IMG/VR virus record: IMGVR_UViG_3300012921_000011
Location: 1-25,244 of that record
Source: a virus
Lineage: Duplodnaviria; Caudoviricetes
Reading direction: 5' to 3' (one strand)
DNA length: 25,244 bases
Shown here: piece after piece, positions 4,381 to 25,244 of the stretch
Numbering within the stretch: position 1 is the stretch's first letter
Layout of the letters: each line of letters opens with the position of its first letter
Made by a program: the position numbers and the translations under genes
The notes under the pieces: generated by a model
Databases searched by the model: none
What the model was told of the DNA's origin: nothing
What the model saw: only the letters and a program-made list of their open reading frames with translations

Positions 4381-5511
4381 ATGGCCAACGTTTTCACCGC
4401 TCTCGCTCCCACCCTGTTCAGCGCCGCCAAGGAAGTGGCCAACGAGCCCTTCGGCGTCGTTGCGGCCATCAACACCGACTTCGACGACAAGGGCGTTGCC
4501 AAAGGCGACACCGTGACCGTCGATGTGGCCCCGACCCGCGCCGCGTCCGACTTCACCCCGAACAACATCGCCAGTTCCGGCACCGAAGCGACCGCCTCCG
4601 GCATCGGCGTCCAGATCACCAAGTCGCGTAAGGTGGACTGGAACCTGACCGGCGAGCAACAGCGCTCGCTCGAAAACGGCGGCATCTCGCAGGACTGGGT
4701 CAGCCAACTGATCAAGCAGGGGATGCGGACGCTCCGCAACGAAGCCGAGATCGACGCGGCTCTGGCCGTGAAGGTCGGTGCGTCCCGCGCCGTGGGCACC
4801 GCCGGCACCACGCCGTTCGCCTCCACCCTGGACCTGCTGGTCGATAGCCGGAAGGTGCTGCAGGACAACGGTTCGCCGATGGCCGACATGCAGTTCGTCG
4901 GCGACACCACGGCGGGCGCTGCCATGCGCAAGCTTGGCGTGATCCAGAACCACTACCAAGCCGGTTCGGATGAGGAGCGCCGCTCGGGCAACCTGCAGCG
5001 CCAGTTCGGGTTCATGCCGCGTGAAAGCGCCGGCATTGCCCTGCACACCAAGGGCACCGGCTCGGGCTACCTCGTCAACAACGGCGCGGGCTATGCCATC
5101 GGCGCCACGGCCATCACCGTGGACACCGGCACCGGCACGATCCTGGCCGGCGACGTGATCACCTTCACGGGTGACGCGAACAAGTACGTGGTCGCTTCGG
5201 CTCTGGCCTCCAACGTGGTGACCCTCGCCGCGCCGGGCCTGCGCCAAGCGGTGGCCGACAACATCGCGATCACGGTTGGCAACAACTACACCGCCAACCT
5301 GGCCTTTGAGCGGTCCTCGGTCGTGGGCGTTCTGCGTCCGCCGCTGATGCCCGCCAACCCGACCATCACCCAGCAACTGATCAGCGATCCGATGGGCATG
5401 ACCTACCTCATGCTCGACATCGCCCAGTACGGTCAGCGCAGCTGGGAGCTGCACCTCGCGTGGGGCTTCAAGACGGTCAACTCCGAGTTCTCGTCCATCG
5501 TCCTCGGCTAG
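4381..5511 (+). CDS. Major capsid protein (P22 coat protein-like, HK97 fold with insertion domain)
   Basis: 376 aa with strongly biased codons. MAN-T-L-PTL N-terminus, Q-MRTL-NE-E-D, a Gly/Thr-rich beta insertion (ILAGDVITFTG) and a DP-G...LAWG-K C-terminus. Confidence 0.88.
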   Translation: MANVFTALAPTLFSAAKEVANEPFGVVAAINTDFDDKGVAKGDTVTVDVAPTRAASDFTPNNIASSGTEATASGIGVQITKSRKVDWNLTGEQQRSLENGGISQDWVSQLIKQGMRTLRNEAEIDAALAVKVGASRAVGTAGTTPFASTLDLLVDSRKVLQDNGSPMADMQFVGDTTAGAAMRKLGVIQNHYQAGSDEERRSGNLQRQFGFMPRESAGIALHTKGTGSGYLVNNGAGYAIGATAITVDTGTGTILAGDVITFTGDANKYVVASALASNVVTLAAPGLRQAVADNIAITVGNNYTANLAFERSSVVGVLRPPLMPANPTITQQLISDPMGMTYLMLDIAQYGQRSWELHLAWGFKTVNSEFSSIVLG

Positions 5512-5591: not shown

Positions 5592-5927
5592 ATGTCCGAC
5601 ATCGAAACCATCCGGCTTGTCCGCGACGCCAAGGAATTTCCCGACAGCCATGAGGCTCTCGTCGATAGCGAGACCATCGGGACGTTCCTTGACGCCGGTT
5701 GGAAGCGCGCCGATCCGCTCGACCACGACGGCGACGGCAAGAAGGGCGGCGCAAAGCCGGGCCGTAAGGCCAAGGCCAGCCAAGACGAAGAGGCTGGCGA
5801 TCCGCCGCTGACCCGACGCGAGATCGAAGCCGACCTCACCGCCATGGGCGAAGACTTCGACCCCACCGCTGACCTCGCCGACCTGCGGAAGCAGCGCGAC
5901 GAAGCCCGCGCCGTTCTGGAAGGCTAA
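5592..5927 (+). CDS. Small head-associated protein with DxDxDG motif and HeH/LEM-like C-terminus
   Basis: GGAGG SD, 111 aa, immediately after the capsid. Contains DPLDHDGDGKKGG and a C-terminal LTRREIEADLTAMGEDFDPTADLADL helix-extended-helix pattern. Confidence 0.65.
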   Translation: MSDIETIRLVRDAKEFPDSHEALVDSETIGTFLDAGWKRADPLDHDGDGKKGGAKPGRKAKASQDEEAGDPPLTRREIEADLTAMGEDFDPTADLADLRKQRDEARAVLEG

Positions 5928-5930
5928 GAC

Positions 5931-6446
5931 ATGGCGCTTGTGACAGAGGATGGCTCGGGACGGGCTGACGCTGAGAGCCTGCTCTCTGTCTCCGACGCTC
6001 TGACCCACCACGCCAACCGTGGCAACGCGGCTTGGGCGCTGCTCTCCACCGCCGCTCAGGAGCAGGCGCTCCGCAAGGCCACAGACTACATCCAAGGCGT
6101 CTACGGCCTTCGCTGGGGCGGCTATCGGGTCTCCCAGACCCAAGCGCTGGATTGGCCCCGCTATCAGGTCGTGCGCCGCGACGTTCTGGCCTCCCATGTC
6201 GTCCAATATTGGCCGAGCAACGAAGTCCCCGCCGGAGTAAAGCGCGCCTGTGCCGAACTGGCCCTGCGCGCCTCTGCGGGCGACCTGAACCCGGACAACT
6301 CGCAGGCCATCAAGCGCGAGAAGGTCGGGCCTATTGAAACCGAATACCAGGATTACAGCAGCGCCGCCCCGTCCTACCCGGCGATCGACGCGGCCCTGAA
6401 GCCGTACCTCGCCACGGGCGGCAGCGCGAGGCTCGTTCGCGGGTGA
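5931..6446 (+). CDS. Head-tail adaptor (family often annotated DnaT-like ssDNA-binding protein)
   Basis: MAL-EDGSG-DAES, W-G-R-QALDWPR, P-VKRACAELA and KREKVGPIETEY motifs, plus position. Confidence 0.82.
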   Translation: MALVTEDGSGRADAESLLSVSDALTHHANRGNAAWALLSTAAQEQALRKATDYIQGVYGLRWGGYRVSQTQALDWPRYQVVRRDVLASHVVQYWPSNEVPAGVKRACAELALRASAGDLNPDNSQAIKREKVGPIETEYQDYSSAAPSYPAIDAALKPYLATGGSARLVRG

Positions 6447-19428: not shown

Positions 19429-20849
19429 TGACGAGCGTTACATGGTCAGTCAGTCTGGGCGGCGACGGCTCCACGGTTGACGACACCGCCGATCCGAACA
19501 CCGGGCTGGATAACTACGGCTATGCCTCGCGCCTGGTCCCAGCCTTCAGCAACCTCCTCAACGTCGCCACCTACACGCAAGGGCGGGCGGTGGCTGCGGC
19601 AGCTTCGGCTGTTGATGCGTCCAACTATGCCGCGTCGGCCCTGAACGCGCCCGGCACGAACGCCACCTCGACCACGTCCGTGGCCATCGCCAACAGCGTT
19701 GACAAGACGTTCGTTATCCAGACGGGCAAGGCCTACGTTACCGGCCAGACGCTCAACGCGGCCTCGGCGGCCAACCCGGCCAACTACATGGCGGGGCAGG
19801 TGAAGACCTACAACAGCGGCACCGGCTCGCTGGTCATCGCGGTCTCCCAGATCGGCGGCTCCGGCACCTTCGCCGATTGGGTCATCTCCATGGCCGCTAT
19901 CGTGTCCTCGACCCTGCCCAGCAGAACGGGCAACGGCGGCAAGTTCCTGACGACCAACGGCACCTCGGCTGAAAGCTGGGCGGCTGCGGTCATCCCGTCG
20001 AACAACGGCTCCGACTTCACCAACATGACGACGTTCCGCTCCAATGTGGGCCTCGCCATCGGGTCGAACGTCCAGGCCTATGACGCGGGCCTGCAGTCCA
20101 TCGCCGGCCTCACCACCGCCGCCGACAAGATGATCTATACGACGGCGTCGGATACCTACGCGACGACGGACCTGACCTCGTTTGCGCGGACCCTGCTGGA
20201 CGACGGCAGCGCGGCGGCGATGAAGACCACGCTTGGCTTGGTCATCGGAACCGACGTTCAGGCCTACAACGGCAACCTCGCGGCCATCGCCGGGCTGGGC
20301 TTCACCGCCGACAAGATCATCTTCTCGACGGGGCCGGGGGCTGTGGCCCTGCAGACCCTGACCGGCTTTGCCCGCACCCTGCTGGATGACAGCGACGCCG
20401 CTGCTATGCGGACGACCATCGACGCGGCGACGCGCGGGGCCAATACCGACATCACCTCTTTGGCCCTGACCACGCCCCTTCCGACCTCGCAGGGGGGCAC
20501 GGGGAGCAACTTCGCTGACCTTGCCGCACTCCTCGCCGGCCTGCCCGTCACGGGCGGCTATTCCGGCGAGGGCCGGATCGGCACCCTTCAGTTCAAGTGG
20601 GGGGTCGCCTCTGTGACGTCGGCGTCTTCGGGCACAACCGGTGAGGCTACTGTCACCTACACCACGCCATTCTCTACCGGAACTGCCGGGGTCTGGGTAA
20701 CGCCCGACCTCAACGCCGGCGCGATTGGCGGGACCAATTACGCCCCATACGTCCGCTCCACGTCAGCCGGCAGCGTCATCATTGGCCTCGATAACAGCGG
20801 CACGCCGAACAACAGCTACTCCTGCTACTGGCTGGCCATCGGCTTCTGA
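19428..20849 (+). CDS. Tail fibre protein
   Basis: 473 aa, Thr/Gly/Ser-rich. LPS-TGN-GKFLTTNG-SW, a duplicated LT-FARTLLDD-AAAM-TT shaft repeat, GANTDITSL, and a C-terminal LQFKWG...WLAIG head domain. Confidence 0.85.
   Translation: MTSVTWSVSLGGDGSTVDDTADPNTGLDNYGYASRLVPAFSNLLNVATYTQGRAVAAAASAVDASNYAASALNAPGTNATSTTSVAIANSVDKTFVIQTGKAYVTGQTLNAASAANPANYMAGQVKTYNSGTGSLVIAVSQIGGSGTFADWVISMAAIVSSTLPSRTGNGGKFLTTNGTSAESWAAAVIPSNNGSDFTNMTTFRSNVGLAIGSNVQAYDAGLQSIAGLTTAADKMIYTTASDTYATTDLTSFARTLLDDGSAAAMKTTLGLVIGTDVQAYNGNLAAIAGLGFTADKIIFSTGPGAVALQTLTGFARTLLDDSDAAAMRTTIDAATRGANTDITSLALTTPLPTSQGGTGSNFADLAALLAGLPVTGGYSGEGRIGTLQFKWGVASVTSASSGTTGEATVTYTTPFSTGTAGVWVTPDLNAGAIGGTNYAPYVRSTSAGSVIIGLDNSGTPNNSYSCYWLAIGF
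20049..20420 (+). repeat. Tandem 62-aa (186-bp) degenerate duplication within the tail fibre
   Basis: GLAIGSNVQAYDAGLQSIAGL...LTSFARTLLDD versus GLVIGTDVQAYNGNLAAIAGL...LTGFARTLLDD. Confidence 0.8.
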
Positions 20850-20855
20850 TCCATC

Positions 20856-20926
20856 GGCCCTGATGGTGTTGGAGCACCACCAGGGCCACCGACTAGTGAC
20901 AGCCGGCATCACGCGCGTGACCCGGT
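20856..20926 (+). promoter_or_regulatory. Structured leader (two hairpins) between tail fibre and lysis region
   Basis: GGCCCTG-a-TGGTGT-tgga-GCACCA-c-CAGGGCC (20856-20887) and GCCGG-ca-TCAC-gcgc-GTGA-c-CCGGT (20902-20926). No U-tract. Confidence 0.5.
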
Positions 20927-20975
20927 AAGCGTAACCAGCAAAGCGAGTGACCGCCATGCAGAAAGAACCCCGCTG

Positions 20976-21281
20976 ATGGAGTTCGCCCAGTTTTTCCAAA
21001 TGGTGGCCACAGGCGCCATGGTCATCATCGCGGGGCTTCTCGCGTGGACCGTAAAGGAAGTGGTCCGTCTCGCCGGCACGAATACCCGGATGGAGACCGC
21101 CATGAACACGCTCGAGAAGCGCATGGAGAAGGTGGAGGGCAAGGCCAACGGCGTTGACCAGCTCAATACCAAGCTCGCGGTGCTGGAGGAGCGGTCGGCC
21201 AACACGGTGACCGCCCTTTCCGAGATCAAGGCGCTGCTGGCATCCCCGCCGCCGCCTCCCCGCCGGAGGGCTACCTCTTGA
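20976..21281 (+). CDS. Membrane protein with one N-terminal TMD and coiled coil (holin/antiholin-like)
   Basis: 101 aa. Hydrophobic residues ~8-26, then a heptad-like coiled coil and a basic PPPPPRRR tail. First gene after the fibre. Confidence 0.7.
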   Translation: MEFAQFFQMVATGAMVIIAGLLAWTVKEVVRLAGTNTRMETAMNTLEKRMEKVEGKANGVDQLNTKLAVLEERSANTVTALSEIKALLASPPPPPRRRATS

Positions 21282-22453
21282 TCCTCGACCCCGGGCTGAA
21301 ACAATTCGCTCAGGGTCGCCAAGCCGAGTTCATCGACGCGGTTAACAACAACGGCTCAATGCGGGCCGCCGCCGTCGCGCTTGGTCTGTCGCAGGATATG
21401 ATCGGGCGTTCGATGCGGGGGCTGAAGAAGCGGGCCGCGCTGGCTGGATACAGCCCCGCATCCGACAACATGCACCACCCCATCCCGGACGGCTTCACGA
21501 TCAAGCGCAGGTCGGCGCGCTTCGACCGCGAGGGCAACCCGGCGGGGGGCTGGGTCATCTCGGAGCCCGGCAAGGAAGAACTGGCGGCCATGCTCCGCGA
21601 GTTCATGGAAACCCTGTCGGCGGACTACGGGGGTCGCTCTCCCCTGATCAGCCGAACGTCACCGGACGCCGCTGACGTGCTGGTCTCCTACAAGTTTGGA
21701 GATCCACACTTCGGCATGTCGTCCAGCTCCCAGACCGGGGCCGACGACTTCGACACCGACGACGCCGAGCGCCTGACCCGCGCCGGCATCGACCAGCTTC
21801 TTGCGGTCACCCCCAACGCCGACACCTGCATCCTCGAAGTCATTGGCGACGTGATGCACGCCAACGATAGCTCGGCCCTCACGCCCGGCCACAAGAACCC
21901 CCTGGACGTGGATAAGCGGGGCTTTCACTACGCCCTGATGCGGGCGGGCCTCGCATGGGCCTACGCCGTTGAGCGGGCCCTGGAGAAGCACGAGACGGTC
22001 ATCGTCTGGATGCTCCCCGGCAACCATGACCCCGACGCGGTGTTCGGCATCACCATGGGGCTGGCCTTCTATTTCCAGAACAATCCCCGCGTCATCATCC
22101 CCATCGACAACCACCCCTTCCGCTACCACCAGTTCGGCAAGAACCTGTTTGGCGCCCACCACGGCGACAAGGTGAAGATGGCCGAGCTTCCCCTGCTGAT
22201 GGCCGTCGATCAACCGGAGGCATGGGGCCAGACGGTCTATCGCTACATCACCACCGGCCACATTCACCACGACGTGGTGAAGGAGCTTCAGGGGGTCAGG
22301 GTGGAGAGCCTGCGGACCTTGGCGGCCAAGGACACCTATCACGCCATGAAGGGCTATCGCTCCCTGCGAGACACGCGGGCTGCGGCCTATCACCGGGAGT
22401 ACGGCGAGTTCCAGCGCCACACCGTTTCAGCCGCCATGTTGGAGGCCGCCTGA
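21278..22453 (+). CDS. Calcineurin-like metallophosphoesterase with N-terminal HTH
   Basis: Five metallophosphoesterase motifs in order: GDPHFG, GDVMH, GNHD, HHGD, GHIHH. N-terminal GSMRAAAVALGLSQ is HTH-like. Confidence 0.85.
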   Translation: MILDPGLKQFAQGRQAEFIDAVNNNGSMRAAAVALGLSQDMIGRSMRGLKKRAALAGYSPASDNMHHPIPDGFTIKRRSARFDREGNPAGGWVISEPGKEELAAMLREFMETLSADYGGRSPLISRTSPDAADVLVSYKFGDPHFGMSSSSQTGADDFDTDDAERLTRAGIDQLLAVTPNADTCILEVIGDVMHANDSSALTPGHKNPLDVDKRGFHYALMRAGLAWAYAVERALEKHETVIVWMLPGNHDPDAVFGITMGLAFYFQNNPRVIIPIDNHPFRYHQFGKNLFGAHHGDKVKMAELPLLMAVDQPEAWGQTVYRYITTGHIHHDVVKELQGVRVESLRTLAAKDTYHAMKGYRSLRDTRAAAYHREYGEFQRHTVSAAMLEAA

Positions 22454-22614
22454 TGGTCACCCCGATCCCCTGGAAGCGCAAGTACGCCGCCTATGCCCGC
22501 GAGCGCCGCGAGTACCGCAAGGCCATCCGCCAAGCCGCTGGCTTTCCCCCGGATGAACACGACCTGAGGCCGGAACCGGCAACGCTGGACTTCTACGACG
22601 ACGAGGAGGGGTGA
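22453..22614 (+). CDS. Small hypothetical protein (53 aa, basic N-half, acidic C-tail)
   Basis: GGAGG at 22441-22445 and TGATG overlap with the upstream stop. Sequence MVTPIPWKRKYAAYARERREYRK...DFYDDEEG. Confidence 0.55.
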   Translation: MVTPIPWKRKYAAYARERREYRKAIRQAAGFPPDEHDLRPEPATLDFYDDEEG

Positions 22615-22648
22615 GCCCCGCAGCACAATAGCGGGGCCACCCAACTGC

Positions 22649-22990
22649 TCACCCCATTTGTTCGGCGATGTTGGCGTTGAGCATCCGCCAGAACCGACGT
22701 TCCGTCGCCAGTTCTTCACCCTCCAGCGGGGCGAAGTCATCGCCGTCGTAGGCAACGACAAACTCCGGCACTCCCGCCGGGGCATCGCTCGACAGGAGCG
22801 CCAGTTGCTCGGCGGAAGCCTGGAGCAGCAGTTCTTGCGCGTAGGCCTTGGCGTGTTCGTCGGGGCTCACGGCGGGCAGTTCTACGCACCACGCAAGCGT
22901 AGCGATGGCGTCGGCATGGATGGCGGCGCTGTCGCCAACGGCGGTTGCAAGCTGCGCTGTGTGCCAGTCGATAAGTTCACGAATGTCCAT
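22649..22990 (-). CDS. Hypothetical acidic protein on the opposite strand (moron-like)
   Basis: ATG at 22990-22988 preceded by GGAGAG on the minus strand. 113 aa, MDIRELIDWH...NIAEQMG. Fills a gap in the + strand operon. Confidence 0.6.
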   Translation of the reverse strand: MDIRELIDWHTAQLATAVGDSAAIHADAIATLAWCVELPAVSPDEHAKAYAQELLLQASAEQLALLSSDAPAGVPEFVVAYDGDDFAPLEGEELATERRFWRMLNANIAEQMG

Positions 22991-23125
22991 TGGCTCTCTC
23001 CGGTGTGTGATGGGAGCAACCTGCGCTTTGACGGCCCGGCCATCAATAGACGCGACAAGCACTCGAAGCAGCGGTGGACAGTCTAGGACACCGATCACAA
23101 GCAATTGACAGAACAGGCGGCGCCC

Positions 23126-23464
23126 ATGACCATCCCTGAGACGGTAAAGGACTGGGCGTCCGCCGCGCGTGACGTTCTCGCCCTCCTGTTCACCCCTGTC
23201 GTCACCCTCATCGCTGGCTGGCTGATCTGCATCCTCGCCTATCGCCCGTGGGCTGAAGGGACGCAGGAATAGCGGATCAACTACCTCGGAGCCGTGGCGA
23301 TCATCGCTGTCGTTCTGGTCGGCTTCGGGGGTCAGTGGTTCCAGCGCAACCGGCTGGAGAAGCTGAAGCTGTCAGGCCCCGGTGGCTTCGGCGGCGAGAT
23401 CGAGACGGAGGCCGAGCCCACCGTCACCACCACAACCACCATCGAAACGGAGGTCAAGCCATGA
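23126..23464 (+). pseudogene. Holin-like gene (two TMDs) interrupted by in-frame TAG at 23270-23272 (nonsense allele or readthrough)
   Basis: MTIPETVKDWASAARDVLALLFTPVVTLIAGWLICILAYRPWAEGTQE*RINYLGAVAIIAVVLVGFGGQWFQRNRLEKLKLSGPGGFGGEIETEAEPTVTTTTTIETEVKP*. The same frame continues across the TAG and ends in an ATGA overlap with the endolysin start. Confidence 0.75.
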
Positions 23465-23844
23465 CCTATGCACTCGGGGCGACGTCGCTTGCCCGGCTTC
23501 AAGGCGTCCACCCGGATCTGGTTAAGGTCGTCAAGCTGGCCATCACGCGAACCCCGGTAGACTTCACTGTCCTTGAGGGCCTCCGAACGAAGGAGCGCCA
23601 AGCCGTCCTGTTCAAGCAGGGGGCCACGAAGACCATGAACAGCCGGCACATCACCGGCCACGCGTTCGACCTGGCGCCGGTCATCGACGGCAAGGTGTCG
23701 TGGGATTGGCCGCTCTATCACCGCCTAGAGCCGGTGGTGAAGGCCGCCGCGAAAGAGCTGGGCGTGCCTATCGAGTGGGGCGGGGGCTGGGCGAGTTTCC
23801 CCGATGGTCCCCATTGGCAGCTCCCGTGGAAAGCCTACCCATGA
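23461..23844 (+). CDS. Endolysin, peptidase M15 family (L-Ala-D-Glu peptidase, T5-like)
   Basis: True start ATG 23461 (GGAGG upstream), 127 aa. L-GVHPDL, EGLRT-ERQ, SRH-TGHA-D and WGG-W...DGPH Zn-peptidase motifs. No SAR or signal sequence. Confidence 0.93.
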   Translation: MTYALGATSLARLQGVHPDLVKVVKLAITRTPVDFTVLEGLRTKERQAVLFKQGATKTMNSRHITGHAFDLAPVIDGKVSWDWPLYHRLEPVVKAAAKELGVPIEWGGGWASFPDGPHWQLPWKAYP

Positions 23845-23963
23845 TCGCCGCCTTCCTCGCTGGCTTCTTCACCGTCGCGGGTGGTGCTCTCGCCATCGTC
23901 TGCGCTGCGGTCGGAGGCTTCTTCGGCCTTCGCTGGCTGTATAAGAAGGGGGTAACGGGATGA
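23841..23963 (+). CDS. 40-aa hydrophobic membrane peptide
   Basis: MIAAFLAGFFTVAGGALAIVCAAVGGFFGLRWLYKKGVTG, with ATGA overlaps at both ends. Confidence 0.6.
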   Translation: MIAAFLAGFFTVAGGALAIVCAAVGGFFGLRWLYKKGVTG

Positions 23964-24364
23964 TCCCCCGCCTCTACCTCTGGATCGCTGGCGTCGCCCT
24001 TGTCGCGGTTCTCGGCGCCATCTTCCTTGGCGGCCCCATCGTCGGCTTCCTTCAGGGTCAGGTGAAACACTGGCAGGCCAAGGAGGAGACCGCCACCGAC
24101 ACCGCCGTCAGCAATGGCGCGGAGACCGCCGGCCAAGCCGCCCTGTCCGCTGCTCAAGGCCAGATCACCGAGCGCGTTATCGAACGCACCAACACCATCA
24201 CCCGCTATGTTGAGCAAGCTTCAGGAGTCCCCGATGCGAAAGCCCCTCTCGGTCCTGATCGTGAGCAGCGCATTGCTGACCATGACCGCAGCCTGTGCCT
24301 CTCAAGGCCGTCTGTCTGCCCCGGTGGGACCGGCGCCACGGGTTCTGACGCCGGAGTACGCTAA
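23960..24364 (+). CDS. Inner-membrane spanin (Rz-like)
   Basis: 134 aa with an N-terminal TMD, helical periplasmic domain and two C-terminal Cys. Follows the endolysin. Confidence 0.75.
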   Translation: MIPRLYLWIAGVALVAVLGAIFLGGPIVGFLQGQVKHWQAKEETATDTAVSNGAETAGQAALSAAQGQITERVIERTNTITRYVEQASGVPDAKAPLGPDREQRIADHDRSLCLSRPSVCPGGTGATGSDAGVR

Positions 24365-24587
24365 GGCCCCCTGCACGCTCTACAGCCGCCCTGCGGTGAC
24401 GCTGGAAGACCTCGAAATCATCGCGGCTATCCGGGGGGAACAACTGCTGACCTGTGACGAGAAGCGCGAGCTGGCGGTACTGGCGAACGCAGCGCAGGCG
24501 AAGGCTCTGGACGCTTGGGAGCAGGCGAGGGCGTTGAGGCGGTGTCCCTGGTGGCGCTTCGGTACATGCAAGCCACCGGATAGCTAG
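24234..24587 (+). CDS. Outer-membrane spanin lipoprotein (Rz1-like), overlapping the i-spanin in +1 frame
   Basis: AGGAG SD at 24223-24227. MRKPLSVLIVSSALLTMTAA-C signal with lipobox, Pro-rich segment, PC...C-KR-V pattern. Confidence 0.78.
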   Translation: MRKPLSVLIVSSALLTMTAACASQGRLSAPVGPAPRVLTPEYAKAPCTLYSRPAVTLEDLEIIAAIRGEQLLTCDEKRELAVLANAAQAKALDAWEQARALRRCPWWRFGTCKPPDS

Positions 24588-24589
24588 GC

Positions 24590-24614
24590 AACCGTCAAGC
24601 ATTCTTTGACAGTT
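24590..24614. repeat. 25-bp imperfect palindrome
   Basis: AACcGTCAA-gcattct-TTGACaGTT: 9-bp arms around a 7-bp spacer. Confidence 0.6.
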
Positions 24615-24649
24615 CACCCTTGTAGGCTAAGGCCTCGGGTTCAAACGAT

Positions 24650-24679
24650 AAGGCCCCGCTGGAAACGGCGGGGCCTTTT
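24650..24679 (+). terminator. Rho-independent terminator ending the late operon
   Basis: AAGGCCCCGCTG-GAAA-CGGCGGGGCCTT-TT. Confidence 0.85.
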
Positions 24680-24696
24680 GCTTGTCCGCTCCCCGC

Positions 24697-24724
24697 TTCA
24701 CATAGCGTCGGTTTGTGCTATTGT
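24697..24724 (+). promoter_or_regulatory. Candidate sigma70 promoter with extended -10
   Basis: TTCACA-N16-TATTGT with TG at 24716-24717, just after the terminator. Confidence 0.45.
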
Positions 24725-24730
24725 GTGGGT

Positions 24731-24884
24731 GTTGCGGCAGAGGGTCCACGACTGTCTGGTTCGCCGGAAAGCCGATCTACCCGCGAGGATGATACGCTGT
24801 CGCTACAGCCCCTGCCGCCGTTAGGTCCAACGCTTGCGTCGGCCCGTTAGAGCGGCGGTGGGGGCGGCCAACTCAGACCCCCGC
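24731..24884 (+). ncRNA. Candidate structured small RNA
   Basis: GCGGCAG-A-GGG (24734-24744) pairs with CCC-CTGCCGC (24809-24818), enclosing UUCG, GCGA and CGCT-loop hairpins. A gCUUGc hairpin lies downstream. No credible ORF. Confidence 0.4.
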
Positions 24885-24890
24885 TAAGCC

Positions 24891-25085
24891 CTAAATCTCC
24901 TCAACCTCCCCACCCTCAGTAACCCTACCCCAAGCTACAGGCTGAAGGCGAAACTCTCGGAGGATGGCGTCGGCTGCGTCGGCTGAAAGCATCAGGCCGG
25001 CGGCGCTGTCGTGATAGTCGTCGATCAAGTCGATCAGCCTCTCCCTCACCCGCTCTCTCAGCGTAACCGTCTCAGCCTCGCTCAT
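24891..25085 (-). CDS. Small hypothetical phage-type protein (64 aa)
   Basis: GAGGAG SD upstream on the minus strand. Helical, with ADAIL and QPVAW motifs common in small phage proteins. Confidence 0.6.
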   Translation of the reverse strand: MSEAETVTLRERVRERLIDLIDDYHDSAAGLMLSADAADAILREFRLQPVAWGRVTEGGEVEEI

Positions 25086-25125
25086 CGGTTCATCTCCTCA
25101 TTTTTCGATCTCATCAGAACGCCTG

Positions 25126-25156
25126 TTGACCGCGCCCTGTAAAACGGCTGTAAAGC
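25126..25156 (+). promoter_or_regulatory. Probable promoter for the tRNA
   Basis: TTGACC at 25126-25131, then GCTGTAAAG at -10 distance, ~45 nt before the tRNA. The -10 element is imperfect. Confidence 0.45.
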
Positions 25157-25199
25157 GCCTCTTCCGAAGCCGGGGCGAAACCCCCGGAAACACTGGTTA

Positions 25200-25244
<45 letters not shown>

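Follow-up and report, generated by a model that had tools for sequence, protein, structure and literature searches.

A lone amber codon in a phage holin-like gene is private to a single environmental contig

Results and discussion

Organization of the lysis region

The window analysed here, a 25,244-nt stretch of the viral record IMGVR_UViG_3300012921_000011, covers the late half of the genome of a tailed phage, with the end of the terminase gene followed by portal, head and tail genes and then by genes for lysis. The features of the lysis region, all on the plus strand, are as follows.

20976..21281, +, 101-aa protein, soluble apart from one N-terminal helix, the second membrane-protein candidate of the region
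23126..23464, +, two-helix holin-like gene of 112 codons, interrupted by TAG at codon 49 in the window contig
23171..23242, +, predicted membrane helix 1, about residues 16-39 (hydropathy and AlphaFold2 model)
23270..23272, +, private TAG; position 23270 is C in 4/4 compared runs
23273..23341, +, predicted membrane helix 2, about residues 50-72 (hydropathy and AlphaFold2 model)
23461..23844, +, M15-type endolysin with private change V69F (Pfam PF13539, E 1.4e-11; phrog_465, E 7.6e-61)
23841..23963, +, 40-aa one-helix gene, also found in relatives L001, L002, L003 and L026
23960..24364, +, inner-spanin-like gene with private change A90V, suggested by position and an N-terminal helix, with no family hit
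24234..24587, +, overlapping outer-spanin-like lipoprotein frame with putative start
24650..24677, +, terminator-like hairpin ending the lysis cassette
25200..25244, +, 5' 45 nt of a tRNA with GCT (Ser) anticodon (Rfam tRNA, partial, E 0.093)

The first-pass annotation had proposed that a hidden 112-codon frame with a lone TAG at codon 49 lies in front of the endolysin gene, and translation bears this out: the sole internal stop is that TAG, in the context GAA-TAG-CGG, and a plain ORF caller divides the frame into 23105-23272 and 23294-23464. The overlap claimed for the two genes is also present, the TGA of the holin-like gene and the ATG of the endolysin sharing ATGA at 23461-23464. The TAG falls in the loop joining the two predicted helices, and the next base is C. 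Both hydropathy windows and the AlphaFold2 model of the read-through form place a helix on either side of it, as had been suggested; the model is a two-helix hairpin (H3-39 and H47-82) with a disordered tail (mean pLDDT 69.9, pTM 0.43). C-terminal of helix 2 lie a basic stretch and then an acidic, Thr-rich tail. Restart of translation after the TAG at GTG 23294 was judged unlikely, GGAG sitting just 2 nt upstream.

That the frame is a genuine gene, again as first proposed, follows from a search with the read-through protein, which returned 30 full-length homologues with 54-91% identity (among 172 candidates, E<=0.001). The adjoining endolysin has no hydrophobic signal or SAR-like stretch by hydropathy (maximum 1.2), in agreement with the earlier reading, and the outer-spanin-like frame carries what we take to be a lipobox-like motif.

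The surroundings of the cassette vary among relatives. About 515 nt at 22615-23143, between a 53-aa gene and the holin-like gene, are absent from L001-L004 and present in the near-identical assemblies X1-X3 described below; this insertion includes a reverse-strand 111-aa ORF (22990-22655), for which there was no Pfam, PHROG or Atlas hit, and accompanies a different holin N-terminus. A 391-aa nuclease/phosphoesterase-like gene (21278-22453; phrog_704, E 1.6e-82), in which an N-terminal helix-turn-helix is hinted at, belongs to the late region and sits directly ahead of the lysis genes, as it does in L003 and L004. In L004, an insertion of ~600 nt at about 5750-6370 takes the place of the 40-aa one-helix gene, between the endolysin and the spanin-like gene.

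The intact product as a predicted holin

The intact 112-aa two-helix membrane protein is probably the holin for the adjoining endolysin. It is a small protein with two predicted membrane helices and a charged cytoplasmic tail, as in two-helix holins. We favour this role because of position and shape: an endolysin-like gene lies 3' of the holin-like gene in 19/21 loci (14 M15-type, 4 GH19-like and 1 other lysozyme-like), with spanin-like genes behind. The two exceptions are L029, which ends too soon, and the weak match L036, for which none was found. By analogy with known systems, the intact protein (N-in, C-in, with the basic stretch after helix 2) would accumulate in the inner membrane and then open it, allowing the signal-less M15 endolysin to reach the wall, and the spanins would complete lysis.

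The type of endolysin appears, from sequence comparison, to be exchanged while the holin-like gene stays. Short M15, longer M15, GH19-like and phrog_1259-like lysozyme forms are distributed over L001-L009, L021-L023 and L031-L038, and the relatives with the longer M15 form (L001, L003, L004 and L026) switch sequence near window position 23600. A by-product of our analysis is thus an unnamed two-helix holin-like family filling the slot before three endolysin types. It comprises 66 representatives at E<=0.001, three of which are long repeat proteins and probably spurious, and occurs in Caulobacteraceae genomes, among others.

Known families offer little by way of a name. Neither the holin-like protein nor the 31 rows of our alignment (A1) gave a hit at E<=0.001 in Pfam, PHROGs or NCBIfam, and 60/66 distant representatives gave none either, save three weak Pfam matches below the curated cut-offs and one unnamed PHROG. 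The best holin hint was phrog_12666 (E 0.012), in 5/31 members. Foldseek returned no fold match in BFVD at E<=0.001; the best ESM Atlas match (0.87) was to unnamed viral clusters and is a lead only. Among 50,697 GenBank phages there was no match for either the holin-like protein or the 101-aa protein, and the literature that we searched, in the portions of text accessible, held no report of this two-helix family.

Two other small membrane proteins nearby (20976-21281 and 23841-23963) count against the assignment, in that they could share or hold the holin role. The former, the 101-aa protein, is possibly a second lysis membrane protein. Many relatives have a similar gene upstream of their holin-like gene, often adjacent to it (L006, L008, L021, L023 and L032-L034).

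The closest parallel is S21 of phage 21, a class II-type holin, which is likewise small, has two predicted helices, is N-in/C-in by charge and is encoded directly before the endolysin with spanin-like genes after. The protein described here differs in having no holin-model match at E<=0.001, about 16 residues rather than 3 before helix 1, and a partner endolysin without a SAR stretch; the usual partners of pinholins are SAR endolysins according to the accessible part of a published account (PMC13056207).

Codon 49 in relatives

The 30 full-length homologues came from a protein search, which is unable to reveal broken copies of the gene, and DNA-level searches, which can, were therefore used as well. 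In alignment A1 (31 rows), R50 is invariant in 31/31 and position 49 is Q in 16/30 homologues. At the DNA level, 14/14 related contigs (11 viral contigs, one genome contig from a Caulobacter assembly and two metagenome contigs) have a sense codon at position 49 and 0/14 a stop, so the conserved TAG for which a comparison of relatives had been proposed is not there. Among the 13 distinct sequences, codon 49 is CAG in nine, and CAA, CTG, GAG and GCG in one each, which supports the earlier view of CAG as the original codon. An alignment-based metagenome scan yielded six loci, the window itself among them, and contig L024 is identical to the window. Nine matches in 8/401 Caulobacteraceae genomes are without internal stop, the sole TGA being the natural end of a fragment at a contig edge.

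The 48-aa truncated product was the only match among 127 candidates of 30-52 aa, with no second 48-aa form recorded there. Among the 66 representatives, which were found without a word index, only the window's product and the distant P0135 end before helix 2. P0135 (74 aa) was considered as a case of the same lesion and rejected: its family sequence is lost right after residue 52, and it looks like a separate frameshift.

Near-identical copies in public runs

Of 24 sequencing runs listed for the window, with no RNA dataset among them, X1-X3 contain 97% of the sampled words, and these three and the next best, X4, were compared with the window. Between 20800 and 25229 (4,430 nt), X1-X3 are otherwise 99.9% identical to the window and differ at three positions, 23270 (C), 23665 (G) and 24228 (C), each at full depth in these assembled contigs, from which rare variants are dropped. 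The depth supporting C at 23270 is 39.5/39.5 in X1, 797.5/797.5 in X2 and 81.4/81.4 in X3, although these runs are possibly the source samples of the window and so not independent of it. X4 is a more divergent strain, with seven other letters in 1,670 nt, and has the same letters as X1-X3 at all three places. The exact protein with Gln49 is known from a 49,231-nt Logan contig, and the 48-aa form only from the 25,244-nt window contig.

The TAG is therefore private to the window contig. The first-pass annotation had pointed to CAG in the reads as the mark of an assembly error, and CAG is what contigs of 4/4 runs carry, X1-X3 being near-identical copies. If one of X1-X3 is the source of the window, the T at 23270 is an outright assembly error.

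Readthrough and recoding

The first-pass annotation had raised the prospect of programmed amber readthrough, in which translation would end at the TAG to give a 48-aa antiholin and, rarely, continue to the full-length holin, the dual-start motif being recast with a stop codon. The position of the stop in the inter-helix loop, with C directly after it, fits such a device, yet we consider it highly improbable. The stop is missing from 4/4 runs, from 14/14 related contigs and from the nine matches in 8/401 family genomes, and no other 48-aa form is recorded among the 127 candidates. The supposedly leaky context is an inherited Glu-Gln-Arg coding sequence, GAA-nAG-CGG recurring with CAG in L001, L002 and L026. 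CAG stands in a copy that otherwise matches the window at 99.9% over 4.4 kb, so the phage can do without a readthrough device. Nor is the RNA downstream unusual: the fold of the 131 nt from the stop has a z of -1.26, with 24/200 shuffles as stable. The proposal of a one-helix antiholin made by readthrough is thus unsupported, given an unconserved stop, an ancestral context and an unremarkable fold. A conserved readthrough-gated holin would have offered a novel means of timing lysis; this falls away with a stop private to one contig. In the parts of the literature accessible to our search there was no report of such a holin, and work on UAG context was mostly eukaryotic.

Dual-start holin/antiholin genes also yield two products from one frame, as was proposed here. 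In lambda S105/S107 and phage 21 S21-68/71, two start codons lie 1-3 residues apart, as described in the available text of PMC13056207. Here, by contrast, A1 has no conserved second start and the internal stop is unconserved; the window's holin-like gene has a single Met, and N-termini vary across A1.

The remotest of the explanations, in our estimate, is that TAG is decoded as Gln in the manner of code-15 phages, whether by recoding or with the help of an amber suppressor tRNA. The original residue is indeed Gln, and an enrichment of in-frame TAG codons is described for the lysis genes of recoded phages in the portion available of bioRxiv 10.1101/2021.08.26.457843; the window thus resembles TAG-to-Gln recoded phages in having an in-frame TAG at a Gln position of a lysis gene. 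However, in the crAss-like, Lak, Garnet and Topaz phages described there, in-frame TAGs are numerous throughout the late genes and suppressor tRNAs are often present (10.1101/2021.08.26.457843, same portion), whereas the 27 genes here contain a single in-frame TAG, 6/27 plus-strand genes, including terL, capsid, tail tube and tape measure, end at TAG in the ordinary way, and GC is 65%. These counts support the first-pass annotation, which had already dismissed genome-wide recoding. As to a suppressor, no whole tRNA, and no amber suppressor tRNA, lies within the 25,244-nt window (the late half of the phage), and the partial tRNA has a GCT anticodon. This terminal piece was itself considered as an amber suppressor and rejected, CUA being one base out of register.

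Private substitutions across the contig

The amber codon is one of several private changes, the others being the following.

1479, 9506, 12414, 14911, 19354, 20430, 23665 and 24228, codons or bases at which portal, tail or lysis genes carry the other private changes of one residue each, relative to near-identical copies or relatives

The base-level comparison spans 20800-25229, and for 1-20,800 proteins were compared instead. Of 20 proteins (5,625 aa) set against the near-identical copy, 12 are identical and eight carry a single residue change each (portal, 9170 gene, tape measure, 18571 gene, tail fibre, holin-like, endolysin and spanin-like); for 3/20 the 49,231-nt contig is not named, two of these being covered by the run comparison. 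This tally leaves out seven of 30 exact look-ups that were absent from the collection (probably through choice of start), the capsid, which has no near-identical copy in its cluster, and the 14785 gene. The last holds a ninth change, against 2/2 relatives, having been compared with relatives only. The window's capsid protein (4381-5511) is alone in its cluster.

The endolysin change V69F (23665) lies in a HAVD-type motif where 14/14 relatives have V, and at the spanin-like change A90V (24228) 5/5 relatives have C. The odd letter belongs to the window in 6/6 cases that could be polarised by outside relatives. The contig differs from its near-identical copy by about 0.5 amino-acid-changing differences per kb, in structural and lysis genes alike, and the 27 translated genes contain no frameshift and no second stop. 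The seven missense changes imply a rate of 0.57 per kb, and 2.6% of random changes in these genes create a stop; the expected number of new stops in the window at this background rate is 0.35, and the probability of at least one is 29%. One lone stop in this contig is thus unremarkable.

With the base change inferred from the protein difference for 6/9 changes, and one base change assumed, 7/9 are A/C or G/T swaps, against 35% expected among amino-acid-changing substitutions (P 0.011 against uniform), and transversions weigh heavily in the spectrum (P 0.0002 if a fourfold bias towards transitions is assumed). A lineage defective in the repair of oxidative damage would yield a similar spectrum. 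A/C and G/T swaps are also the commonest HiSeq errors, at 29.2% and 26.8% (together 56%), in the accessible part of PMC3334598, and the mechanism of Illumina substitution errors is treated further in PMC4381044, likewise available in part. The window resembles Illumina-based assembly errors as these two accounts describe them in having scattered single-base substitutions, without indels and with A/C and G/T dominant, and differs in that the stop arises from a C>T change.

Error or mutation

We think it likely that the TAG is a base-calling or consensus error confined to the window contig, and that the gene of the phage itself reads CAG. We prefer this to a real disarming mutation because the contig has a background of scattered substitutions; thin coverage or amplification behind the assembly would account for these private differences. 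Against an error stand the C>T at 23270, which is outside the A/C and G/T class, and the length of the contig, as 25 kb needs some depth.

A real and recent CAG>TAG nonsense mutation in the sampled sub-lineage, leaving a 48-aa one-helix fragment and blocked lysis, is a less likely but tangible possibility, and may reflect either genetic drift within a lysogen or the beginning of prophage disarming. C>T is a common true spontaneous mutation, and the element resembles an integrated prophage. Moreover, 3/8 changes fall in lysis genes (holin-like, endolysin and spanin-like), which account for 7% of the residues in the comparison (P 0.017 by a post hoc test; 0.088 without the stop). However, private substitutions also occur in the portal, tape measure and tail fibre genes and in three other genes of the structural region, the window has the odd letter in all six polarised cases, the spectrum leans towards transversions as described, no frameshift or second stop accompanies the change, and the near-identical runs carry an intact gene. 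Of the proposal that a nonsense mutation disarms a domesticated prophage, the CAG ancestry therefore stands; the mutation may still be real, yet error is likelier given the scattered substitutions. A bolder version, in which a sub-lineage truly has the amber stop together with endolysin V69F and the spanin changes, caught at the first step of disarming while near-identical sisters are intact, seems to us improbable.

The split holin-like gene is hence most likely no feature of the phage. More generally, single in-frame stops in environmental viral contigs need comparison with sister assemblies, and the other private changes of this contig, such as endolysin V69F, are not to be interpreted without reads.

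Probable prophage setting and host

In X1, the same element is a single 49,231-nt contig, both ends of which join the 45-nt piece at 25200-25244. The depth of this piece is about twice that of the phage (70 vs 39.5 in X1, 1500 vs 797.5 in X2 and 160 vs 81.4 in X3). Because both contig ends join a piece at about twice the depth, the element is likely an integrated prophage with 25200-25244 as its attachment repeat. Most tRNA-targeting integrases use the 3' half of the tRNA gene; here, integration would leave the phage supplying the 5' half of the tRNA and the DNA upstream.

As the relatives include one Caulobacter assembly and matches in 8/401 genomes of the family, we infer from these sequence matches a Caulobacteraceae-like host. 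Upstream of the tRNA piece, at about 25127-25155, a TTGACC...TGTAAA stretch that the scan giving the terminator-like hairpin did not report was seen by eye.
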